DNA of 12,562 bases from a virus (taxonomy: Duplodnaviria > Heunggongvirae > Uroviricota > Caudoviricetes): the IMG/VR virus record IMGVR_UViG_2703718813_000005; one strand, written 5' to 3'. A program made the translations under genes and the position numbers. The notes beneath the pieces were generated by a model. That model did not search any database. It was not told the DNA's origin and saw nothing but the letters and a program-made list of their open reading frames with translations. Shown here piece after piece: positions 1 through 10,075 of the stretch. How positions within the stretch are numbered: the first letter of the stretch is position 1; each line of letters begins with the position of its first letter.

Positions 1-17
1 AATTCAATATAGAGCAC

Positions 18-40
18 AACCGCGCTCTTGCGGTTTTTTT
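18..40 (+). terminator. Rho-independent terminator
   Basis: Stem AACCGC (18-23) / GCGGTT (30-35) with a 6-nt loop, followed by a T-run to 40. Probably ends an upstream transcript. Confidence 0.6.
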
Positions 41-140
41 GTGTCATGAGCAGCATTACGCCCAAATTATGGTGGGGCGTGCAGGGCCAACTTCGGTTGG
101 GCCGGGTTCTTTGGTGACCGGTATTTCCACCCCTGTACGT

Positions 141-179
141 CTCACCACCAATAAGGTCGTGGAAAGCCTTGGTGGTGAG
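141..179. repeat. Perfect 11-bp inverted repeat in the leader of the rha-like gene
   Basis: CTCACCACCAA (141-151) and TTGGTGGTGAG (169-179) are exact reverse complements, separated by 17 nt and followed by TTATTAAAAAT. Lies about 30 nt upstream of the AAGAGG ribosome-binding site. Confidence 0.45.
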
Positions 180-209
180 TTATTAAAAATCACCAAAGAG
201 GCTGCCATC

Positions 210-755
210 ATGGCTACGATCCCAACCCTCACTCAACCTGAAATTGCCATCGTTGATGGTCAGGCTGTTACTTCATCCCTGGCTGTTGCCAACTTCTTCT
301 CCAAACGTCATGACGATGTACTGAAAAAGATCCGCACGCTTGAATGTTCCGCATCATTCACTGCCCGCAATTTTTCGGTGAGTGATTACACCGATTGCAC
401 AGGCCGCAAACTACCTTGCTATCAAATAACCCGCGACGGCTTTGCGTTTCTTGCTATGGGTTTCACGGGTAAACGTGCTGCCCGGTTCAAAGAGGCATAC
501 ATCAATGCCTTTAACCAGATGGAGAAACAGCTTTCAAAGCCCGCTGTACCGAGCGACGTTGCACATAACGCCAGCGTTCTCTGTTCCTACATTTCATCAA
601 TTCATCAGGTCTGGCTGCAGCAGCTTTATCCTATGTTGGCAAAAGCCGAATCTCCGCTGGCTGTTAGCTTATATGACTATATTAATGATGCTTCGGCGCT
701 GGCCTGCCTCATAAATTTGTCGCTGAACCCTTCAGAGGCAAGGGGGCGCAAATGA
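210..755 (+). CDS. Rha-family phage regulatory protein
   Basis: Translation MATIPTLTQPEIAIVDGQAVTSSLAVANFFSKRHDDVLKKIRTLE... matches the Rha/pRha family as I remember it. ATG at 210 has an AAGAGG site 9 nt upstream. The track ORF begins at a TTG at 39, inside the terminator, which I consider less likely. Stop overlaps the next start (ATGA). Confidence 0.7.
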   Translation: MATIPTLTQPEIAIVDGQAVTSSLAVANFFSKRHDDVLKKIRTLECSASFTARNFSVSDYTDCTGRKLPCYQITRDGFAFLAMGFTGKRAARFKEAYINAFNQMEKQLSKPAVPSDVAHNASVLCSYISSIHQVWLQQLYPMLAKAESPLAVSLYDYINDASALACLINLSLNPSEARGRK

Positions 756-976
756 TCCGGAATATTTTCAAACGTTTTACCAATCAGACTTTCCGTTGTC
801 CTCGTCCGGGTCAGTGGTACACCACGCCTGCAGGGCATGTTCTACGTGTTAGCCTGGTTGACCGTGAATGTCAGAAGGTGATTTGTGAACCGCTGGGCCG
901 TAATTACCGCGTCAGTATGCCGCTTATAGCCTTTCGCTCCGGAAAAAACATGAAGCATCTCGGAGGTGCAGCATGA
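752..976 (+). CDS. Small hypothetical phage protein (74 aa)
   Basis: ATG 752 overlaps the rha stop, with AGGGGG 5 nt upstream; its stop overlaps the next start (ATGA at 973). Translational coupling in an operon. No family recognised. Confidence 0.5.
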   Translation: MIRNIFKRFTNQTFRCPRPGQWYTTPAGHVLRVSLVDRECQKVICEPLGRNYRVSMPLIAFRSGKNMKHLGGAA

Positions 977-1791
977 GTATGGAGCTGATGGTTAAAGCGA
1001 TGAAAATTCGAGTGGGTAATCCATTGCGAAAACTGGTTCTGATCAAGCTGGCTGATAATGCCAGCGATCAGGGTGAGTGCTGGCCCAGCTACCAGCATAT
1101 TGCTGACCAGTGCGAGATTAGCAAACGTTCTGTGATGAATCATATTGCGGCCCTTTGTGAGTCCGGGCTGGTAAAAAAAGTCACCCGGAAAGGTGAAAAA
1201 GGTAACTCAAGTAATATCTATCTCCTTCATCTTGATGGTGCAGGAGATTCACTAGGGAGTAGTGCAAATAATTCACTATCTGGTGCAGCAAATTCACCAG
1301 GTAGTGCAGGAGTTGCACCAGGGGGTAGTGCAGGAGATTCACCCAGAACCAGTCACTCTTTTGAACCAGTCAAAGAACCAGTCAATGAACCAATAGCTGT
1401 TGGTGCATCTGCTGATGAGTCTGTGCGAGTTCGTTCAAACCGACCGGAATACTCTCCGGAGTTTGAGCAGGCATGGCTGGCATATCCCAAACGTACTGGT
1501 GGCAATTCAAAATCTGCAGCCTTCAAAGCCTGGAAAGCCCGTTTGAATGAGGGGGTAAACCCCGAAACCATGCTGGAAGGTGTGAAACGCTACGCGGGCT
1601 GGGTATCTGCGATGGGTAACAGCGGCACACAATTTGTGAAACAGGCTGTCACGTTCTTTGGTCCGGATCGTCATTTCGAAGAATCCTGGGAAGTTCCTGC
1701 GGTATCTGTAGCCGGACGCGAGGACCCGTACTTCAAAGCCAGTTACGACAACGTGGACTACAGCCAGATCCCGGCAGGATTCAGGGGGTGA
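973..1791 (+). CDS. HTH-domain protein, phage replication-initiator / replisome-organiser-like
   Basis: N-terminus LRKLVLIKLADNASDQGECWPSYQHIADQCEISKRSVMNHIAALCESGLVKK resembles the helix-turn-helix domain of phage replication initiators. A central Gly/Ser/Ala/Pro-rich linker is encoded by DNA repeats. GGAGG lies upstream of ATG 973. The replication role is an inference. Confidence 0.55.
   Translation: MSMELMVKAMKIRVGNPLRKLVLIKLADNASDQGECWPSYQHIADQCEISKRSVMNHIAALCESGLVKKVTRKGEKGNSSNIYLLHLDGAGDSLGSSANNSLSGAANSPGSAGVAPGGSAGDSPRTSHSFEPVKEPVNEPIAVGASADESVRVRSNRPEYSPEFEQAWLAYPKRTGGNSKSAAFKAWKARLNEGVNPETMLEGVKRYAGWVSAMGNSGTQFVKQAVTFFGPDRHFEESWEVPAVSVAGREDPYFKASYDNVDYSQIPAGFRG
1235..1395 (+). repeat. 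Direct-repeat tract inside the 973-1791 gene
   Basis: Exact 15-mer GTGCAGGAGATTCAC at 1238-1252 and 1328-1342, with degenerate copies at about 1262, 1284 and 1304 (roughly 20-24 bp period). GAACCAGTCA occurs at 1346-1355, 1364-1373 and 1375-1384. Encodes a low-complexity linker. Confidence 0.6.
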
Positions 1792-1793
1792 TC

Positions 1794-2282
1794 ATGAGTC
1801 TTTTGAATGACGTTCAGAAATTCATTGAAGCCCATCCGGGGTGTACTTCCGGAGACATTGCGGATGCTTTTGCAGGTTACTCACGGCAGCGCGTTCTGCA
1901 GTCAGCAAGCAAGTTACGTCAGAGCGGGCGTGTGGCTCACCGTTGTGAAGGAGATACACGCAGACATTTCCCGCGCCTGACTGAGAGAGCGCAGGAACCG
2001 GAACCACAACCAGTTCGAGAAACCAGACCTGTGCGCAATTTCTATGTCGGCACTAACGATCCACGGGTGATTTTGTGCCTGACCCGCCAGGCGGAAGAAC
2101 TGGAGTCCAGGGGCTTATACCGTCGTGCTGCAACGGTGTGGATGGCGGCATTCCGTGAAAGCCACTCCCAGCAAGAGCGAAACAATTTTCTGGCGCGTCG
2201 TGAGCGGTGCTTACGGAAAAGCAGCAAGCGCGCTGCATCGGGTGAAGAGTGGTATCTGTCAGGGAATTACGTGGGGGCTTAA
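1794..2282 (+). CDS. PerC-family-like transcriptional regulator
   Basis: C-terminal AEELESRGLYRRAATVWMAAF...ERNNFLARRERC fits the PerC/Pch signature as I remember it (LE-KGL-RRAA-W ... RRERC). N-terminal part looks like a winged helix. ATG 1794 has AGGGGG upstream; a GTG at 1788 is the alternative start. Confidence 0.5.
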   Translation: MSLLNDVQKFIEAHPGCTSGDIADAFAGYSRQRVLQSASKLRQSGRVAHRCEGDTRRHFPRLTERAQEPEPQPVRETRPVRNFYVGTNDPRVILCLTRQAEELESRGLYRRAATVWMAAFRESHSQQERNNFLARRERCLRKSSKRAASGEEWYLSGNYVGA

Positions 2283-2935
2283 TGAGTAATAAATATTGCC
2301 AGGCGCTGGTGGAACTGCGGAACAAACCAGCCCATGAACTGAAGGAAGTGGGCGATCAGTGGCGCACGCCGGACAACATTTTCTGGGGAATTAACACCCT
2401 GTTTGGCCCGTTTGTTCTGGATCTGTTCACTGACGGTGATAACGCCAAATGTGCCGCGTATTACACGGCGGAAGACAACGCGCTGGCGCATGACTGGTCA
2501 GAACGTCTTGCGGAGCTTAAAGGTGCTGCCTTTGGTAATCCCCCATACAGCCGCGCCAGTCAGCATGAGGGGCAATACATCACCGGCATGCGTTACATCA
2601 TGAAACATGCCAGTGCCATGCGTGATAAAGGCGGGCGCTATGTTTTCCTGATCAAAGCTGCCACCAGCGAAGTGTGGTGGCCGGAAGATGCAGATCATAT
2701 TGCTTTTATTCGCGGGCGTATTGGTTTTGAACTGCCTGCCTGGTTTATCCCGAAAGATGAGAAGCAGGTGCCGACAGGCGCTTTCTTCGCTGGTGCTATT
2801 GCTGTTTTCGACAAGACCTGGAAGGGACCGGCAATCAGCTACATCGGGCGCGATGAACTTGAGGCATGTGGTGAGGCGTTTCTGGCGCAGGTTCGCCAGC
2901 AGGCGGAAAAACTGGTCAGGGAGATGGCGGCATGA
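2282..2935 (+). CDS. Phage Dam-type DNA N6-adenine methyltransferase
   Basis: WRTPDNIF ... GNPPYS (NPPY catalytic motif) ... GRIGF is the layout of the small phage Dam family. ATG 2282 overlaps the upstream stop (TAATG). Confidence 0.8.
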   Translation: MSNKYCQALVELRNKPAHELKEVGDQWRTPDNIFWGINTLFGPFVLDLFTDGDNAKCAAYYTAEDNALAHDWSERLAELKGAAFGNPPYSRASQHEGQYITGMRYIMKHASAMRDKGGRYVFLIKAATSEVWWPEDADHIAFIRGRIGFELPAWFIPKDEKQVPTGAFFAGAIAVFDKTWKGPAISYIGRDELEACGEAFLAQVRQQAEKLVREMAA

Positions 2936-3258
2936 CGACGTTAACTCAATGCCAGCAGCAGGTGCTGGATATGCTGATTTCTTATCAGAAAGAACGTGGC
3001 TTCCCGCCAACCAATCAGGAGGTGGCAACCATGCTGGGATACCGTTCAGTGAATGCAGCGGTGGAGCATCTTCGCGCACTGGAGAAAAAAGGCGTCATCA
3101 CGATAAAGCGTGGTGTGGCCCGGGGGATCACGCTTCATACCGTGGTGAAGGACGACGACAGCGAGGCGGTCGGGATTATCCGCTCACTGCTTGCCGGTGA
3201 GGAAAACGCCAGGCTGCGTGCAGCCCATTGGTTACATGAGAGAGGCCTGAAAGTATGA
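2932..3258 (+). CDS. LexA N-terminal DNA-binding-domain homolog, no S24 peptidase domain
   Basis: MTTLTQCQQQVLDMLISYQKERGFPPTNQEVATMLGYRSVNAAVEHLRALEKKGVITIKRGVARGITL aligns closely with my recollection of the E. coli LexA N-terminal domain. Only 108 aa with an unrelated C-terminal tail. AGGGAG site upstream; ATGA overlaps on both sides. Confidence 0.75.
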   Translation: MTTLTQCQQQVLDMLISYQKERGFPPTNQEVATMLGYRSVNAAVEHLRALEKKGVITIKRGVARGITLHTVVKDDDSEAVGIIRSLLAGEENARLRAAHWLHERGLKV

Positions 3259-3650
3259 AGCTGATCCTGCCTTTTCCGCCCAGCGTGAACACGTACTGGC
3301 GACACCCCAACAAAGGGGCGTTTGCTGGTAAGAGCCTGATAAGCGCGGCGGGGCGAAAATTCCAGAGCGCGGCGTGTGCAGCAATAGTTGAGCAGTTACG
3401 TCGTCTGCCAAAACCAACGTCGGCACCTGCTTCAGTGGAGATCGTGTTGTTTCCTCCGGATAACCGGATCCGTGATCTGGACAACTATAACAAGGCGCTG
3501 TTTGACGCCCTGACCCACGCGGGTGTGTGGGAAGACGACAGTCAGGTGAAAAGAATGCTGGTGGAGTGGGGACCGGTTATCCCGGAGGGGAAGGTCGAGA
3601 TCACTATCAGTAAGTACGAAAAAGCGAGTTGCAAATTAGCAACTCGGTAA
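3255..3650 (+). CDS. rusA: RusA-family Holliday junction resolvase
   Basis: LPFPPSVNTYWRH ... RDLDNYNKALFDALTHAGVWEDDSQV follows the RusA pattern (PPS-N-YxR, DLDN, FDAL). About 131 aa. Confidence 0.85.
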   Translation: MKLILPFPPSVNTYWRHPNKGAFAGKSLISAAGRKFQSAACAAIVEQLRRLPKPTSAPASVEIVLFPPDNRIRDLDNYNKALFDALTHAGVWEDDSQVKRMLVEWGPVIPEGKVEITISKYEKASCKLATR

Positions 3651-3695
3651 CGGAATTGAGCAACACCCTAAATTTGGGTATTACCTCGTTAAAGA

Positions 3696-3715
3696 TACTG
3701 TATTTATGAACAGTG
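3696..3715. promoter_or_regulatory. Canonical LexA (SOS) box
   Basis: TACTGTATTTATGAACAGTG has CTGT (3698-3701), an 8-nt AT-rich spacer and ACAG (3710-3713). Sits about 100 bp upstream of the KilA-N gene start, next to -35-like TTGATA (3721-3726) and -10-like TAAGTT (3744-3749). Confidence 0.7.
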
Positions 3716-3812
3716 TATCCTTGATAACTATTAAAAATCGCAGTAAGTTCATCCTGCATCAACGAAAAGGGAGTGCAGTCCCGCTCGTGGATAAAAATTT
3801 GTGGAGAAACCA

Positions 3813-4628
3813 ATGAATCAGTTGCTTGTAATTGATGGCGTTTCTGTGCGCCAGTACTTCGAATCTAACTACTGTCTTAACGACCTTCAGAAAGCTGCTC
3901 TTCTTGCCGCTGGTGAGAATCGCTCCTCCCGTTCGCTGGAAGTTCACGAGTTTATGCGTCGTCCTGAAACGAAGGCTCTTGTGGAATTATTGGAAGAAGA
4001 AACTACGGGAGATTCCCGTAGTATTCCTGTCATCACCATTCAGGGGCGCAATGGTGGGACGTATGTCTGTAAAGAGCTGGTCTATGCATATGCAATGTGG
4101 ATCAGCCCGGCATTCAGCTTAAAAGTGATACGTACTTTTGATGCGCTTCATAATTCATCACCAGAAGAAACCACATCCGACAAAATTAAATCCGGGGTCA
4201 TTCTGCTTGAATCAGCAGCAAAGACTCTAAATCTGTCAAACTCCTCGAAACTTGGTGCATACCAGAAATTATCAAAGGTAGCTGGTCTTCCTGAACTTAT
4301 GCCGATCTATGCCATTGATGCACCTGCTGATGCGCCAGATGGTTCAAGCCGCCCTACGCTGTCGCTGAGTGCACTGCTGAAGCAGTATGGTATCCGCCTG
4401 ACGGCTAATCAGGCATATCACCAGATGGCGAAGCTGGGGATCGTTGAACAACGCGAACGATACAGTCGTACCGCGATTAACAACATCAAAAAATTCTGGT
4501 CGCTGACCGCGAAAGGCTGCATGTTCGGCAAGAACATCACCAGTCCTGCAAATCCGCGCGAGACGCAGCCGCATTTCTTCGAATCCCGATTCCCTGAGCT
4601 GTTAAAGCTGCTCGATACCGTTCATTGA
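3813..4628 (+). CDS. KilA-N domain protein (antirepressor-like)
   Basis: N-terminal region ...YCLNDLQKAAL...GTYVCKELVYAYAMWISPAFSLKVIRTFDAL matches the KilA-N signature (GTWVHP-LA...WLSP-F). ATG 3813 has GGAG 6 nt upstream. A GTG at 3801 is a less likely start. Confidence 0.7.
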   Translation: MNQLLVIDGVSVRQYFESNYCLNDLQKAALLAAGENRSSRSLEVHEFMRRPETKALVELLEEETTGDSRSIPVITIQGRNGGTYVCKELVYAYAMWISPAFSLKVIRTFDALHNSSPEETTSDKIKSGVILLESAAKTLNLSNSSKLGAYQKLSKVAGLPELMPIYAIDAPADAPDGSSRPTLSLSALLKQYGIRLTANQAYHQMAKLGIVEQRERYSRTAINNIKKFWSLTAKGCMFGKNITSPANPRETQPHFFESRFPELLKLLDTVH

Positions 4629-4635
4629 GGTGACC

Positions 4636-5625
4636 GTGAGAGCACTACTGACCCCTGAAATTGCCCCGCGTATGGGGATCGTATTGTTCAGACCAGGTTC
4701 AGAGCTGATGCCCTTGTTTATGCAGGGGCGTGTCCTGCTGGAGCCTGAGCCGGAACGTTATTCATCTTTCGCCAGTGGTGCCGTTCCGGCGGCATCACAA
4801 CCGCTGGCGGATGATCCTGCCGTTCGGGCCGTGTTCCGCAATGAGGCAGTGATCCGTCGTGCTGGTGGCGTGGAATGTCTTGAAAGCTGGTTACTTCGTG
4901 AAAAAGGCTGCCAGTGGCCTCATTCCGACTGGCACAGCGAGAACATGACCACAATGCGACACGCTCCGGGCGCAATCCGTCTGTGCTGGCACTGTGACAA
5001 TCTTCTCCGTGACCAGTTCACGGAACGGCTGGAATCAATGGCAACGGATAACTGTGCCCGCTGGGTGTTGTCTGTTGTGCGCCGTGATCTTGGTTTTGAT
5101 GACAGTCACGTTGTGACAATGCCGGAACTGTGCTGGTGGCTGGTTCGTAATGACCTGGCGGATGCCTTACCGGAAAGTGCAGCCCGTAAGGCCCTGAGAT
5201 TACCGAAGCCTGTTTTGCCGTCTGTCACCCGGGAGAGTGACCTTGTGCCTTCGGTTCCTGCCACCAGCATTATCCAGGATAAAGCGAAAAAGGTGCTGGC
5301 GCTGAAAGTGGATCCGGAGTCGCCGGAGTCTTTTATGTTACGCCCCAAACGTCGTCGCTGGGTTAATGAAAAGTACACGCGCTGGGTTAAGACGCAGCCG
5401 TGTGCATGTTGTGGTAAGCCAGCCGACGATCCGCATCACCTGATTGGCCATGGTCAGGGTGGAATGGGTACTAAAGCGCATGACCTTTTTGTGTTGCCTT
5501 TGTGCAGAAAACACCATGACGAACTGCATGCGGATACCGTGGCATTTGAAGAGAAGTATGGTTCCCAACTGGAGCTGATATTTCGTTTTATCGATCGCGC
5601 GCTGGCGATTGGTGTGCTGTCCTGA
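4636..5625 (+). CDS. DUF968-like protein with a Cys/His-rich C-terminal motif
   Basis: C-terminus CACCGKPADDPHHLIGHGQGGMGTKAHDLFVLPLCRKHHDELH looks like a zinc-binding nuclease-type motif typical of prophage DUF968 proteins found beside Q genes. Start is uncertain: GTG 4636 (GAGG 5 nt upstream) or GTG 4630. Confidence 0.55.
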   Translation: MRALLTPEIAPRMGIVLFRPGSELMPLFMQGRVLLEPEPERYSSFASGAVPAASQPLADDPAVRAVFRNEAVIRRAGGVECLESWLLREKGCQWPHSDWHSENMTTMRHAPGAIRLCWHCDNLLRDQFTERLESMATDNCARWVLSVVRRDLGFDDSHVVTMPELCWWLVRNDLADALPESAARKALRLPKPVLPSVTRESDLVPSVPATSIIQDKAKKVLALKVDPESPESFMLRPKRRRWVNEKYTRWVKTQPCACCGKPADDPHHLIGHGQGGMGTKAHDLFVLPLCRKHHDELHADTVAFEEKYGSQLELIFRFIDRALAIGVLS

Positions 5626-5642
5626 TTTTGTGGAGAAAGTTG

Positions 5643-6005
5643 ATGCGTGATATGTATGAAGTATTGGACCGCTGGGGAGCATGGGCTGCAGCAGAAAATA
5701 GTGGTGTGGACTGGCAGCCGATAGCGGCTGGTTTCAAGGGACTTTTACCACACGGTAAAAAGTCACGTCTCCAGTGTGATGATGATGAAGGCATCATGAT
5801 AGACGGTTGTGTGGCTCGGTTGCGAAAGTATAAACCAGAGGAATATGAGCTGATCATAGCTCACTTTGTTATTGGTATCTCATTACGCACTATTGCCAAG
5901 AAGAGAAGATGTTCAGATGGCACAATTAGGAAGGAATTGCAGACTGCCATGGGGTTTATCAGCGGTGTAATAATAACTATAAACCCCATTATGGTAGTTA
6001 ATTAA
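5643..6005 (+). CDS. Late antiterminator Q (phage 82 / QuuD-like family)
   Basis: MRDMYEVLDRWGAWAAAENSGVDWQPIAAGFKGLL...SRLQCDDDEG...CSDGTIRKELQTA matches the short Q family (LERWGAWAA, IAAGFKG, CSDG). GGAG upstream of ATG 5643. Confidence 0.85.
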   Translation: MRDMYEVLDRWGAWAAAENSGVDWQPIAAGFKGLLPHGKKSRLQCDDDEGIMIDGCVARLRKYKPEEYELIIAHFVIGISLRTIAKKRRCSDGTIRKELQTAMGFISGVIITINPIMVVN

Positions 6006-6573
6006 TGTGAATCCTATCACCAAGATAGTATAGTCCAAAAAATGTTGAAACAAGCATTTGCCATGTAAGGAATAAAAAGATAATGATATAGCACCAGTTT
6101 GCTATATCATTATTCAGTATGTTTATTAGTGGTGTGATAAAAGCGTTGAAAATCACTATGCATATGCTGAGGGCAGTTAAAAATGAAAATAACATGCACA
6201 GAAATAATCTTCTGGTAAGTTTCTCTTGAGTGTCAACAATTCTACCATTTTCTTTTGTTCGTGTAATTTTAATAAAAGGAGTGCCATTAGTTCCTATCAG
6301 AGGGTAGTCAATTTGTTCTCTGTTGAAAGTGGCTATTGCTGCAAGAGCTGCTATATAAAAACCTGGCAGATTTGATACAAATCCAGATATAGACTTAATA
6401 AAGCCGCCATCTTTTAGTAGGTCTGATGTAGGTATTTTAAATAAATAAAAGTAAAAAAAAGAAATCACAGCAAGCCCGGCAGGTGCATAAAAATCGTATG
6501 CGCACTTACCACTAATTCCCTTAATGAAAAGGTAACCAAACGGTCTAAATAAATGTGAAAATATACTAATCAT
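5998..6573 (-). CDS. Small integral membrane protein (191 aa, about four predicted helices)
   Basis: Hydrophobic segments GLAVISFFYFYLF, PGFYIAALAAIATF, LFLCMLFSFLTALSICIVIFNAFI and WCYIIIFLFLTWQMLVSTFFGLYYL. GAGG sits 5 nt upstream of the ATG, and the start lies 7 nt after the upstream gene's stop. Very AT-rich. Its 3' end overlaps the Q stop by a few nt. Confidence 0.6.
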   Translation of the reverse strand: MISIFSHLFRPFGYLFIKGISGKCAYDFYAPAGLAVISFFYFYLFKIPTSDLLKDGGFIKSISGFVSNLPGFYIAALAAIATFNREQIDYPLIGTNGTPFIKITRTKENGRIVDTQEKLTRRLFLCMLFSFLTALSICIVIFNAFITPLINILNNDIANWCYIIIFLFLTWQMLVSTFFGLYYLGDRIHIN

Positions 6574-6580
6574 ATTAGCC

Positions 6581-7609
6581 TCACATGACCTCGATAATCT
6601 TATTCACAAACTCCATGTTAATACTATCATAAGAATCCTTTAAGCGCGAAGAAAAACCATTTATTACACTCTTTTTGATAAATGTTTTTTCCAGCCCATC
6701 CAGCCTTACATTTGAAGTTTGAAGGTCAACTTGTCTTGTGAATCCTGTCTCTGGCTCTTTGAATTTTATTTTTATTAAGTCATAACCTCCATTTTTATCT
6801 TCTTTAAAGAAGTTTGAGACAGATTTTATCCATCCAAGGACATTGTTGGGGCCATGGTTTGGTACTAAGCGTAAAGTACTTTCTTTAGGAATAATAGCCG
6901 CGTTAACATCTGGCGCATTAATAGTTCTGTATTCATTCTTTACCAAAACGACATCAGAAAGTCCTTCTTTATTTATTTTATTGAACAAATCTTCATCTAA
7001 CTTTCCAGATATATCAAAGACTGGCTTGTATAATACTTTTATTTTTTTCTTTGTTAAACTTGACACTTCATTTGTTAAAGTGTGACATGAAAAGATATCT
7101 TCATTATCTTTGGCTACGTTAAAGAGAACTTTATTCAGGAAACCATTTATTTTTGCTGTGGAAACTCCTGGTATTGGCATAAAACTCATGTCATACGTTC
7201 GCATATTTCCGTCTAGAGAAATAATCATATGAGAAGAAACTTCGTAACCTTCACCTTCCTCATGTTTTGGTGATATTTCGGTGCGAACATCTGTATTAAT
7301 GTTTTTTAATACAGTAGTGCTTCCATTTTTATCTACAGCATTAATTAAAAGACCAAGATGGCTGGGTTTTTTATCGGCTCTGTTTGATAAGAATATTACA
7401 TCTTGTAAAGTTAAAACTAAGTCTCCTTTTTCATAACTGTGCATCATTGCTTTACAACGTACTATTTTAGAAGCAAGTTCACGCATTGTTGGTACCGGGC
7501 AAACACAGTTCGATCTGATGCTATCATCAATTTTCTGTGTACGGTATTGTGTATCGATCGTAATAGTATGATGAGTTATTACTCTACTGAATGCGTCCAG
7601 TGTAGCCAT
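6581..7609 (-). CDS. Hypothetical soluble protein (342 aa), first gene of the AT-rich cassette
   Basis: Long uninterrupted ORF in an AT-rich segment, with Lys/Asn/Ile-rich composition typical of foreign low-GC DNA. No signal peptide or transmembrane segment visible. Weak ribosome-binding site. No family recognised. Confidence 0.6.
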   Translation of the reverse strand: MATLDAFSRVITHHTITIDTQYRTQKIDDSIRSNCVCPVPTMRELASKIVRCKAMMHSYEKGDLVLTLQDVIFLSNRADKKPSHLGLLINAVDKNGSTTVLKNINTDVRTEISPKHEEGEGYEVSSHMIISLDGNMRTYDMSFMPIPGVSTAKINGFLNKVLFNVAKDNEDIFSCHTLTNEVSSLTKKKIKVLYKPVFDISGKLDEDLFNKINKEGLSDVVLVKNEYRTINAPDVNAAIIPKESTLRLVPNHGPNNVLGWIKSVSNFFKEDKNGGYDLIKIKFKEPETGFTRQVDLQTSNVRLDGLEKTFIKKSVINGFSSRLKDSYDSINMEFVNKIIEVM

Positions 7610-7722
7610 TTCAAAATATCCGCTTCTTTGCTGTTTTTATATGGAGAAAGTTTACATAACCACTAACGCGTACGCAAAAACTATTGTATCGTGTTAAGAG
7701 TGGTTACTTCGCCACACAGCTT

Positions 7723-7747
7723 AAACCCGCCGCGAGCGGGTTTTTTT
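7723..7747 (+). terminator. Rho-independent terminator (tR'-like position)
   Basis: AAACCCGC (7723-7730), loop CGCGA, GCGGGTTT (7736-7743), then T-run to 7747. Confidence 0.7.
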
Positions 7748-7869
7748 ATGGCTGAAATCGGTCCAGTACAGTAAACGCGCTGGCGGCGGTGAATACCGGT
7801 CTTTCAGCTTGCTGGCTTTTTTGACAAGAGTTATTGGTGTGTCACGTTAACCGGAAAAGGGAAAAAGAC

Positions 7870-8067
7870 ATGCTGAAACAGCAGGATATGACCGAAACCG
7901 CCAGAGTGGTGTTTAATGAATTAAGTGCCACCGCACCGGCGACAGTCGGGGAGATTGCACAGAATACGTACCTTTCACGCGAACGCTGCCAGCTAATACT
8001 GACCCAGCTTGTTATGGCGGGTCTGGCAGACTATCAGTTCGGTTGTTACAGACGCCTTCAGTCCTGA
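7870..8067 (+). CDS. Small winged-helix protein (PapI/FaeA-like?), 65 aa
   Basis: TVGEIAQNTYLSRERCQLILTQLVMAGLA resembles small wHTH regulators. TTGACA at 7821-7826 is a possible -35. The stop lies inside a strong terminator. Confidence 0.45.
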   Translation: MLKQQDMTETARVVFNELSATAPATVGEIAQNTYLSRERCQLILTQLVMAGLADYQFGCYRRLQS

Positions 8068-8077
8068 AGGCTTTTTT
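8054..8077 (+). terminator. Rho-independent terminator
   Basis: GCCTTCA (8054-8060), loop GTCC, TGAAGGC (8065-8071), then TTTTTT (8072-8077). Confidence 0.7.
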
Positions 8078-8094
8078 ATTTGTGGTAAATGGGC

Positions 8095-8125
8095 GGCTGG
8101 TGGGTGTTAGGGGCACTCACCAGCC
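8095..8125 (+). other. Strong 12-bp stem-loop in the leader of the second methyltransferase gene
   Basis: GGCTGGTGGGTG (8095-8106), loop TTAGGGG, CACTCACCAGCC (8114-8125). 11 Watson-Crick pairs plus one G-U. No T-run follows, so it is not an intrinsic terminator. Confidence 0.45.
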
Positions 8126-8218
8126 ATCTGCTCATGCGTCCGGATCACAAGCAAACCTCAGGCCCATCTGCTTTGCGCAAAAGCGGTATGAGCCTATCAG
8201 AGACAGGCTTAATGATCC

Positions 8219-9286
8219 ATGTTTAATACTGTAAAAATATCCAGTCGTGAATTAATCAACGCCGACTGCCTGGAATTTATCCGGTCGTTACCCGAAAATT
8301 CTGTTGACCTGATAGTCACGGACCCGCCGTACTTTAAAGTGAAGCCTGAGGGCTGGGATAACCAGTGGAAGGGCGACGATGATTACCTGAAGTGGCTGGA
8401 CCAGTGTCTTGCGCAGTTCTGGCGGGTGCTGAAACCTGCCGGAAGTCTTTACCTGTTCTGTGGCCATCGCCTGGCATCTGACATTGAAATCATGATGCGT
8501 GAACGCTTCAGTGTGCTGAACCATATTATCTGGGCGAAGCCGTCCGGACGCTGGAACGGGTGCAACAAGGAAAGCCTGCGGGCGTATTTCCCCGCCACAG
8601 AGCGCATTCTGTTCGCGGAACATTATCAGGGGCCGTATCGTCCGAAAGATGCCGGGTATGAGGCGAAGGGCAGGGCACTGAAACAGCATGTGATGGCACC
8701 GCTGATTGCTTACTTTCGTGATGCGCGCGCTGCCCTGGGGATAACGGCAAAACAGATTGTGGATGCCACAGGAAAGAAAAACATGGTGTCGCACTGGTTC
8801 AGTGCCAGTCAGTGGCAACTGCCGGACGAAAGTGATTATCTGAAATTACAGGCGCTGTTTGCCCGGGTGGCAGAAGAGAAGCATCAGCGGGGTGAACTGG
8901 AGAAGCCCCACCACCAGCTGCTGGAGACGTATACTTCACTGAACCGGCAGTATGCGGAACTGCAGAGTGAATATAAGCATCTGCGGCGGTATTTTGGCGT
9001 GACGGCGCAGGTGCCGTACACGGATGTGTGGACGCATAAACCGGTGCAGTACTATCCCGGGAAACATCCGTGCGAAAAACCGGCAGAAATGCTGCAGCAG
9101 ATAATCAGCGCGAGCAGTCGTCCGGGTGACCTGGTTGCAGATTTTTTCATGGGGTCGGGTTCGACAGTCAAAGCCGCGATGGCGCTGGGGCGTCGTGCAA
9201 CTGGCGTTGAGCTGGATACCGGGCGTTTTGAACAGACTGCGCAGGAAATCAGGGATGTATTTAGCGGGAGCGGTTTGCAGAAGTAA
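8219..9286 (+). CDS. DNA adenine methyltransferase (DPPY ... FxGxG order), orphan
   Basis: N-terminal SVDLIVTDPPYF (motif IV) and C-terminal DLVADFFMGSGSTVKAA (motif I), with HPCEKP. Resembles the YhdJ/phage adenine methylase layout with an insertion in the middle. Confidence 0.85.
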   Translation: MFNTVKISSRELINADCLEFIRSLPENSVDLIVTDPPYFKVKPEGWDNQWKGDDDYLKWLDQCLAQFWRVLKPAGSLYLFCGHRLASDIEIMMRERFSVLNHIIWAKPSGRWNGCNKESLRAYFPATERILFAEHYQGPYRPKDAGYEAKGRALKQHVMAPLIAYFRDARAALGITAKQIVDATGKKNMVSHWFSASQWQLPDESDYLKLQALFARVAEEKHQRGELEKPHHQLLETYTSLNRQYAELQSEYKHLRRYFGVTAQVPYTDVWTHKPVQYYPGKHPCEKPAEMLQQIISASSRPGDLVADFFMGSGSTVKAAMALGRRATGVELDTGRFEQTAQEIRDVFSGSGLQK

Positions 9287-9349: not shown

Positions 9350-10075
9350 ATGGATGTTGCCTGCTCTGTGGTCCTGATTCGCTATCCGATAGATATTTTT
9401 CTTGAAAAAGAAAAAGTTTCACTCGATGCCGGAAGTGTTATGCTTGTTGCCAGAAATATAAGAGGGCTTTTCTGTGCTTATGCCGACAGAGTGAAAATGG
9501 CAGATATAAGTAACAGCGTCGTCAATCAGTATCTGGAAAGGGAGTGTGAACTGACGGAGTATACACCGACAAAAATGCCTCTTTATTTGATGTCTGATAT
9601 TTACAATACGGAACTGGCGGAGGCTTTAATAACCCAGCATAGTGAATCCAGTGATACTTTGAAGGATTTCTCTGTTATAACCGCATTTTCATGTATCTCC
9701 TTATTTGCAACAGACAGGCGTCTGCCATTATTTTTGTCCGGTGCTGTAAATAATATCAGCTGTAAAGTAAGGGCTATAATTCAGACCGACATATCGGCAG
9801 GCTGGATGCTAGGTGTGATTGCATTACAATTGCATATGAGCGAAAGCTTGTTGAAGCGAAAACTTAAGGATGAAGGTTATAGCTTTAGTCGGTTGTTGCT
9901 GGAGGAGCGAATGCGTGTTGCTGTTAATCTTGTATGTTTCCAGCGAGAGTGTGGACAAGCGATAGCGGAAAAATGTGGTTACTCAAGTAAGTCCTATTTC
10001 ATTTCTGTATTTCACCAGTATTATGGTGCACCACCTGAGAGCTATGCATATTTGCAGAAAGCAGACGTTATCTGA
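9350..10075 (+). CDS. AraC-family transcriptional regulator (AppY-like)
   Basis: C-terminal AraC-type double HTH (GWMLGVIALQLHMSESLLKRKLKDEGYSFSRLLLEERM ... IAEKCGYSSKSYFISVFHQYYGAPP). N-terminus MDVACSVV resembles prophage AppY. AT-rich gene. Confidence 0.75.
   Translation: MDVACSVVLIRYPIDIFLEKEKVSLDAGSVMLVARNIRGLFCAYADRVKMADISNSVVNQYLERECELTEYTPTKMPLYLMSDIYNTELAEALITQHSESSDTLKDFSVITAFSCISLFATDRRLPLFLSGAVNNISCKVRAIIQTDISAGWMLGVIALQLHMSESLLKRKLKDEGYSFSRLLLEERMRVAVNLVCFQRECGQAIAEKCGYSSKSYFISVFHQYYGAPPESYAYLQKADVI

Follow-up and report, generated by a model that had tools for sequence, protein, structure and literature searches.

Binding of LexA to DNA is uncoupled from RecA*-stimulated cleavage in LexA(Ind-) mutants and in the LexA 1-84 fragment, and ClpXP recognises the N-terminal fragment of LexA by a new C-terminus ending VAA. 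The cleavage products of LexA are quickly degraded by ClpXP and Lon, the determinants of LexA dimerisation lie in the C-terminal domain, and operator-bound LexA has an interface between its N-terminal domains (PMC3159453). Among phages, gp6 of the Bacillus thuringiensis tectivirus GIL01 is a truncated LexA homologue and an activator of the late promoter P3; its binding site, a palindrome at -43.5 (GaCACAn nTGTGaC), is not the host LexA box (PMC6182141). Here we describe a 108-residue LexA-like protein encoded on a 12,562-nucleotide stretch of viral DNA (Caudoviricetes, IMG/VR record IMGVR_UViG_2703718813_000005), the whole of which we call the window and which is the early-right arm of a mosaic lambdoid prophage. 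The protein has a LexA-type DNA-binding fold without the S24 peptidase domain, and we favour, with modest confidence, the explanation that it is a RecA-insensitive delayed-early phage transcription factor whose own palindromic operator is related to the host SOS box but distinct from it.

A LexA-type DNA-binding domain without S24 peptidase

We assessed the N-terminal part of the protein with profile, sequence and structure searches. Residues 1-65 covered the whole of the Pfam model PF01726 (LexA_DNA_bind; positions 1-65 of 65, E = 2.9 × 10−19, 69 bits against a cutoff of 23.7). A phmmer search with the 108-residue protein against all PDB sequences matched LexA proteins exclusively, with the E. 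coli LexA N-terminal domain entries 1lea and 3jso as best matches (E ~1 × 10−15). In the phmmer alignment residues 2-69 paired with E. coli LexA without insertions or deletions, and ‘RSVNAAVEHL’ of the phage protein faced ‘RSPNAAEEHL’ of LexA, such that the match between SVNAAVEHL and SPNAAEEHL, which an earlier note on this DNA had given, was seen directly. An AlphaFold2 single-chain model generated from 19 family members, with an overall predicted local distance difference test score (pLDDT) of 84, had the LexA topology (helices at residues 6-22, 28-35 and 40-52, strands at 56-58 and 66-68), and its top Foldseek match was chain B of the LexA–DNA complex 3JSO (root-mean-square deviation 1.0 Å over 68 columns, 50% identity). 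The searches thus bear out the claim that the protein matches the LexA N-terminal winged helix-turn-helix (wHTH) over the whole length of that domain.

The protease half of LexA is missing. Pfam gave no Peptidase_S24 match in the 108-residue protein, and the match to the NCBI lexA equivalog TIGR00498 was confined to model positions 1-91 of 203 and fell below the cutoff (71 bits against 110.95). The LexA domain that carries the catalytic Ser119 and Lys156 has no counterpart, as the phage protein stops at residue 108, and because the RusA gene starts inside the stop codon of the LexA-like gene, there is no room for a C-terminal domain. The same note had stated that both the S24 domain and the Ala-Gly cleavage site were lacking, of which the former stands but the latter does not: an Ala88-Gly89 dipeptide is present, and in the HMMER alignment ‘LLAGE’ pairs with the LexA cleavage strand ‘VAAGE’ (Ala84-Gly85-Glu86 in LexA). 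Relatives have AN, VG, ER, DD, AE and others at this place, and a cleavage motif of the G-x-V-A-A-G type was found in none of 154 proteins matching the tail profile. Since the dipeptide varies among relatives, we rejected a functional Ala-Gly site as a conserved feature; it would be at most an unconserved relic of descent from a full-length LexA. A PADLOC match to CARF3 (E = 3 × 10−4) was marginal and irrelevant to the LexA-like protein.

Beyond a linker that is disordered in the AlphaFold2 model (residues 71-75, pLDDT < 50), the C-terminal part was predicted to fold as a helical hairpin (pLDDT ~90). Its motif, roughly EAxxLLRALxxGExxARERAxxFLxxxG, was retained in relatives of 40-57% identity, while sequence searches with the hairpin tail returned no significant PDB or Pfam match. 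This contradicts the earlier description of a short unrelated tail, as the hairpin is both confidently predicted and conserved across the family. Judging by the model, the hairpin is probably a dimerisation module that replaces the LexA C-terminal domain.

The LexA-like gene is complete and under purifying selection. All frames were intact among 43 distinct alleles from 80 IMG/VR loci, and the variants in these alleles were 49 synonymous and 9 non-synonymous, with three of the nine in the wHTH. The related-locus search with the closer family alignment yielded relatives of 98-100% identity only. At greater distance, the protein matched PHROG 362 (‘transcriptional repressor’, 106 positions) from end to end (residues 1-108 against positions 1-106 of 106, E = 2.4 × 10−59), and a profile search found 3858 proteins at E ≤ 1 × 10−10, which we describe from the 120 matches listed. 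Named sources among these 120 were Escherichia, Salmonella, Citrobacter, Cronobacter, Klebsiella, Atlantibacter, Enterobacter and Hafnia, and their precomputed Pfam hits included PF01726 and no S24 peptidase. Length was steady at ~105-135 amino acids in relatives down to ~40% identity from at least six genera, including a Klebsiella relative of 130 amino acids with more than 1000 member sequences.

The family is not a new discovery: it is already annotated and very common, and belongs to the known phage-encoded truncated LexA homologues, among which its tail is distinctive. The 327-bp gene was present in 2233 of 5426 complete E. coli genomes (41%), at up to four places per genome, where it is annotated as ‘LexA family transcriptional regulator’, and an identical protein occurs under that name on at least 1000 contigs. 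The region of the window was 99.5% identical to Escherichia phage PhiR49_1 and ~94% identical to Stx2a- and Stx2c-converting phages, Shigella phage SfII and mEp460. Annotations in these phages label the gene ‘repressor, lexA family’, ‘LexA DNA binding domain protein’ or ‘hypothetical protein similar to LexA’, and a pangenome study of Shiga toxin (Stx) phages merely lists it (pham 237, pfam01726). In the literature searched we found annotation-level mentions only and no functional study of the enterobacterial family. Many further stand-alone phage proteins of 65-150 amino acids with a LexA DNA-binding domain, from mycobacteriophage Wildcat, Tectiviridae and uncultured Caudovirales, were recovered by Foldseek among predicted viral structures.

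Recognition helix, SOS boxes and candidate functions

As far as is known, the hosts of the subfamilies compared here all share the SOS box CTGT-N8-ACAG. A secondary citation names Ser39, Asn41, Ala42, Glu44 and Glu45 as the DNA-contacting residues of LexA helix 3 (PMC3091678), and of the five named there the alignment showed four to be kept in the phage protein (Ser39, Asn41, Ala42 and Glu45), with Glu44 replaced by Val. We grouped 313 retrieved homologues by the sequence that follows the wHTH, which gave 31 with a LexA-type cleavage motif and 125 with the hairpin tail. Glu44 was present in 30 of the 31 homologues with the cleavage motif vs. none of the 125 with the tail, where position 44 was V in 64 proteins, A in 22, T in 15, N in 11, L in 8, F in 4 and S in 1. 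The tail family had 21 different helix-3 strings, among them VNAAVEH (E. coli), HNAAAEH (Salmonella), PNAANDH (Atlantibacter), PNAATDM (Cronobacter), SNAVLLH (Klebsiella) and VNTIAGH (Citrobacter), and in the Klebsiella string both Glu44 and Glu45 are gone. Conservation in the wHTH was strongest at Arg38, Ser39, Asn41, Lys53, Arg64 and Gly65. Because Glu44 is never kept in the tail family and helix 3 is diverse among hosts with one SOS box, the operator is most likely not the host SOS box. If the protein imitated host LexA, its contact set should be held to that of LexA, while diversification would be expected for phage-specific operators, of which gp6 is an example. These indirect observations lower the likelihood that the protein mimics LexA at SOS boxes, less so for the E. 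coli subfamily with its single changed contact residue. The earlier proposal that it occupies SOS boxes and resists RecA cleavage thus divides in two: insensitivity to RecA* is still expected from the lack of S24, but SOS-box occupancy is weakened by Val44 and the 21 forms of helix 3.

The explanation we favour combines these observations as follows. The protein would descend from the DNA-binding half of LexA and be encoded in the nin operon, between the replication genes and Q, as a product of the PR transcript, appearing once the repressor is lifted or on infection; in a prophage under repression it would not be made. It would bind DNA via its LexA-type wHTH as a dimer held together by its own C-terminal hairpin, in place of the dimerisation and protease domain of LexA, and RecA* would be unable to switch it off because it has neither an S24 domain nor a conserved Ala-Gly site. 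Its operator would be LexA-like in layout, that is, a palindrome, without being the host SOS box, and the protein would regulate phage-specific promoters, or some subset of promoters, during lytic growth, as gp6 does in GIL01.

The SOS box at positions 3696-3715 was assessed as a possible partner of the gene. As the earlier note had it, a perfect box lies some 440 bp downstream: TACTGTATTTATGAACAGTG lies 438 bp past the LexA-like stop and is the sole exact CTGT-N8-ACAG in the window (shuffled sequences had a mean of 0.15, with at least one in 28 of 200). On a weight matrix derived from SOS boxes it scored 20.7, which is in the range of genuine ones, as six of the boxes used for the matrix scored 18.0-26.9. 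By eye, weak promoter candidates were TGAACA-16-TATTAA, with its −35 element within the box, and TTGATA-17-TAAGTT. The box is real, but it is not a conserved partner. The 150-bp spacer between RusA and KilA-N that contains it, along with the 5′ end of this KilA-N allele, was carried by 186 of 5426 E. coli genomes, of which 176 had gene and box contiguous, corresponding to ~8% of the genomes that carry the gene (176 vs. 2233). Among the 80 IMG/VR loci the box was at +764 in 12, no strong SOS box was present within the sequence covered in 32, and the remaining loci had canonical boxes at variable places, for example in the immunity region (−3 to −5 kb) or at a methyltransferase start (~+5 kb). 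Most relatives, including Stx2a_1447 and the closest whole-window match, strain SMBL, have a RusA–KilA-N spacing of 20 bp without a box, and at the Cronobacter locus there was no SOS box within 8 kb on either side. We rejected the box as a conserved cis partner, given its presence in a minority of genomes and loci; it is most likely a host-LexA operator of a minority, antirepressor-like KilA-N allele. The earlier interpretation is supported in part: a complete gene for a LexA DNA-binding domain without the autocleavage domain stands, the box as its conserved partner does not.

Further SOS-like sequences were seen in the window and at related loci. The KilA-N module (3651-3812 and 3813-4628) resembles a LexA-controlled module of the antirepressor type swapped into the nin region, and its protein had a weak PADLOC match to PDC-S22 (E = 7.6 × 10−10). 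A second SOS-like box, TACTGTAAAAATATCCAGTC, lies at 8227-8246 (CTGT-N8-CCAG, score 21.9) within codons 3-9 of an N6_N4 DNA methyltransferase gene (8219-9286). Two Salmonella loci (L087 and L088), as well as 18 of the 80 IMG/VR loci, have a perfect box, TACTGTAAAAATAAACAGTG, at the corresponding position. This second box could represent a LexA target where a late-region methylase begins, or else a coding coincidence. The coding sequence annotated as cI contains a perfect box, TACTGTTTTTATATACAGTA, or its ...ACATACAGTA variant, where the segment for the helix-turn-helix gives way to that for the C-terminal half, at 229-248 in Stx2a_1447 (L001) and also in 24 of the 80 IMG/VR loci, −2.9 to −5.3 kb from the LexA-like gene. 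In Klebsiella prophages (L083-L085, 7385-8393) 40 bp separate the perfect SOS box TACTGTTTATTTATACAGTA from dinI downstream of it, and a small open reading frame and the 130-residue homologue with a LexA DNA-binding domain come next on the same strand. The Klebsiella subfamily may itself be SOS-induced.

Several observations weigh against the favoured explanation. Inverted repeats at window positions 1-6100 did not reveal an operator of the phage’s own, intergenic palindromes of the E. coli, Salmonella, Cronobacter and Klebsiella loci included no candidate, and a scan for arm and spacer enrichment in 82 sequences (the window and 81 related loci) was dominated by polymorphic terminator copies, with no operator among the results. 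The E. coli subfamily keeps four of the five helix-3 contacts and is 50% identical to the LexA N-terminal domain, so that residual or even full binding to SOS boxes is conceivable. In Klebsiella the homologue sits ~600 bp downstream of the perfect box TACTGTTTATTTATACAGTA and of dinI, which that box precedes on one strand, and a connection to the SOS response thus persists there. The proposed tail-mediated dimerisation is read from a monomer model, and the timing of expression from the position of the gene. We weighed a possible but unlikely alternative, in which the protein is a non-cleavable LexA surrogate that acts on CTGT-N8-ACAG and re-represses, in the lytic phase, the SOS regulon, the phage’s own KilA-N gene and the LexA-controlled antirepressors of rival prophages. 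The resemblance of residues 2-69 to E. coli LexA, with no gap in the alignment and with Ser39, Asn41, Ala42 and Glu45 of the named contacts in place, speaks for such a surrogate, but Glu44 is absent from all members of the tail family though nearly universal in LexAs with the cleavage motif, and helix 3 diversifies among enterobacterial subfamilies with a common host box. A genuine SOS box does follow the gene and RusA directly in 176 of the 186 box-bearing genomes, but these are a small fraction of the genomes with the gene. In Klebsiella the gene sits behind both a perfect box and dinI, an SOS modulator, on the same strand, but this is the form that is also without Glu45. At least one strong SOS box was within 10 kb at 48 of the 80 loci, a count taken from gene-bearing loci only, and the nearby boxes are canonical regardless of helix 3 of the phage protein, as sites of host LexA would be. 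The broader claim that the family is a RecA-proof stand-in for LexA on SOS boxes despite the Glu44 change, resetting SOS in lytic growth and silencing co-resident antirepressors together with its own KilA-N, is slightly more doubtful.

An adaptor or protein-interaction role, for example for the DNA methyltransferase or RusA, or interference with host LexA or RecA via N-terminal-domain contacts on DNA, is improbable. The start of the gene overlaps the methyltransferase stop in the E. coli, Salmonella and Cronobacter subfamilies, but the Klebsiella subfamily has no adjacent methyltransferase, and conservation peaks in the wHTH, which is typical of a DNA binder and contains three of the nine non-synonymous variants. 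The interface between LexA N-terminal domains on the operator makes a mixed complex on DNA conceivable (PMC3159453); LexA, however, dimerises via its C-terminal domain (PMC3159453), which is absent from the phage protein, so that poisoning of host LexA dimers, also raised earlier, is unlikely. Still less credible, and very improbable in our assessment, is a decayed and functionless 5′ fragment of a full-length phage LexA or CI-like S24 repressor gene. The alignment extends into the LexA linker and cleavage strand (LLAGE vs. VAAGE), which suggests a full-length ancestor, but none of the 43 alleles is interrupted, synonymous variants outnumber non-synonymous ones by 49 to 9, length is maintained in the six or more genera sampled, RusA starts inside the stop codon and the PHROG 362 profile itself has 106 positions. 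A frameshifted or truncated S24 repressor was rejected on the same evidence of intact alleles, purifying selection and steady length, and there was no relative with S24 that would make the gene a fragment of a longer one, as the earlier note had considered. The transcription factor with its own operator remains our favoured explanation.

Operon and prophage context

The gene is located in a run of early genes (Table 1). Both of its ends overlap the neighbouring genes by 4 nt, with the start within an ATGA at the Dam stop and the RusA start within the ATGA at 3255-3258 that overlaps its own stop, and the same overlaps are annotated in relatives; these overlaps point to translational coupling of the gene to Dam and RusA. 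A consensus scan of positions 2200-4000 found no promoter-like site. From the position in the operon, the 4-nt overlaps and the lack of a promoter-like site we infer delayed-early expression.

Table 1 Coordinates of the LexA-like gene, its parts and the surrounding features in the window.
Feature	Position	Strand	Basis
Rha/Ash regulator	39-755		ORFs (open reading frames), Pfam
O-like replication protein	973-1791		ORFs, Pfam
PerC-like protein	1788-2282		ORFs, Pfam
Dam, phage DNA N6-adenine methyltransferase	2282..2935	+	PF05869, E = 1.1 × 10−45; start from RefSeq/GenBank annotation of relatives
GGAG Shine-Dalgarno 8 nt before ATG, and ATGA overlap with Dam stop	2920..2935	+	sequence
LexA-like gene, 108 amino acids, stop TGA 3256-3258	2932..3258	+	ORF list, Pfam, PHROG
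LexA-type winged helix-turn-helix, residues 1-68	2932..3135	+	AlphaFold2, Foldseek, phmmer
Recognition helix, residues 40-52, VNAAVEHLRALEK	3049..3087	+	alignment, AlphaFold2
Predicted C-terminal helical hairpin, residues 75-108 (helices 75-88 and 93-103)	3154..3255	+	AlphaFold2, relatives’ alignment
Ala88-Gly89-Glu90, counterpart of LexA cleavage site	3193-3201		HMMER alignment
RusA Holliday-junction resolvase	3255..3650	+	PF05866
Canonical SOS (LexA) box TACTGTATTTATGAACAGTG	3696..3715	.	150-bp spacer upstream of KilA-N gene
KilA-N domain protein	3813..4628	+	PF04383, PHROG 129; start as annotated in PhiR49_1
DUF968/HNH protein	4630-5625		ORFs, Pfam
Antiterminator Q	5628-6005		ORFs, Pfam

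Synteny around the gene is conserved. The nin-operon order PerC, Dam or another methyltransferase, LexA-like gene, RusA, KilA-N, DUF968 and Q was found in Stx2a_1447, PhiR49_1 and SMBL, and the same order was found in Salmonella, where the protein is 57% identical, and in Cronobacter (~50%). Klebsiella relatives keep the order in part, with no methyltransferase next to the gene.

The window as a whole is a rare mosaic, since coverage of 80% or more was reached by a single one of the 5426 complete E. coli genomes (goat strain SMBL, 97.6% identity), which lacks the spacer with the SOS box. No tRNA genes were detected in the window with ARAGORN, and the 3′ end enters a region for which relatives have the annotation of a SASA-family carbohydrate esterase. 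An antisense low-GC gene pair (5998-7609, − strand), located between Q and the late region, matched the PADLOC candidate defence system PDC-M53 (M53A, 342 amino acids, E = 7.8 × 10−32; M53B, 191 amino acids, E = 1.7 × 10−54), with no Pfam hits for either gene and a similar pair in the same slot of Stx2a_1447 and strain SMBL. Within 7610-8218, a strong terminator-like hairpin, AAACCCGCCGCGAGCGGGTTT, at 7723-7743 may mark a tR′-type site after the late promoter. Further downstream, a 77-residue open reading frame (7834-8067) had weak winged helix-turn-helix matches, and an AraC-family regulator (241 amino acids, HTH_18) was present as cargo downstream of the methylase, within 9350-10075.

Significance and comparison with known systems

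The protein is among the commonest accessory regulators of E. coli prophages, Stx2-converting phages included, and whether it touches SOS boxes would matter for the biology of Stx phages. Action on SOS promoters could affect the induction of Shiga-toxin phages, competition between co-resident prophages and SOS-driven mutagenesis, and were the doubtful reading as a LexA stand-in to hold, it would amount to a phage-imposed SOS reset in ~40% of E. coli genomes. With its own operator, which we favour, the protein would be an uncharacterised layer of lambdoid delayed-early regulation, and also the second independent phage re-use of LexA’s DNA-binding domain, after GIL01 gp6.

Within the PHROG 362 and RefSeq family of enterobacterial lambdoid prophages, which includes Stx2 phages, SfII, mEp460 and PhiR49_1, the window protein is a member with no structural difference. 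Compared to E. coli LexA, it shares the fold, 50% identity over the N-terminal 68 residues and Ser39, Asn41, Ala42 and Glu45, but differs in having no S24 and dimerisation domain and no conserved Ala-Gly, in Val44 and in falling below the TIGR00498 cutoff; its gene is prophage-borne and, in E. coli, without an autoregulatory SOS box of its own. LexA(Ind-) and LexA 1-84 provide the functional analogy behind the reading as an SOS mimic. In LexA(Ind-), however, helix 3 is native and the C-terminal dimerisation domain is still present, and unlike LexA 1-84 the phage protein ends in ...GLKV after a hairpin that is predicted to be folded.

The described phage and plasmid SOS modulators, namely GIL01 gp7, DinI and the LexA-controlled antirepressors 186 Tum, Gifsy and N15 AntC, similarly tie a temperate phage to the LexA/RecA circuit, and a dinI gene and SOS boxes adjoin relatives of the LexA-like gene. 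In contrast to the LexA-like protein, none of these modulators is a LexA DNA-binding domain; they contact LexA or RecA protein-to-protein or are themselves LexA targets. A Tectiviridae ‘LexA DNA binding domain’ protein was a weak structural match to our model (E = 3.4 × 10−3, 30% identity). GIL01 gp6, compared here by its published description, ends at the wing, whereas the enterobacterial protein adds a conserved hairpin of 35 residues. The two also differ in host phylum, in phage type (a tectivirus vs. a lambdoid siphovirus) and in genomic position, which is the nin operon here, and late transcription of lambdoid phages is already under Q. Both nevertheless have a temperate-phage LexA wHTH without S24, a place among the early products, which for the enterobacterial protein is suggested by gene order, and a recognition helix unlike that of host LexA.

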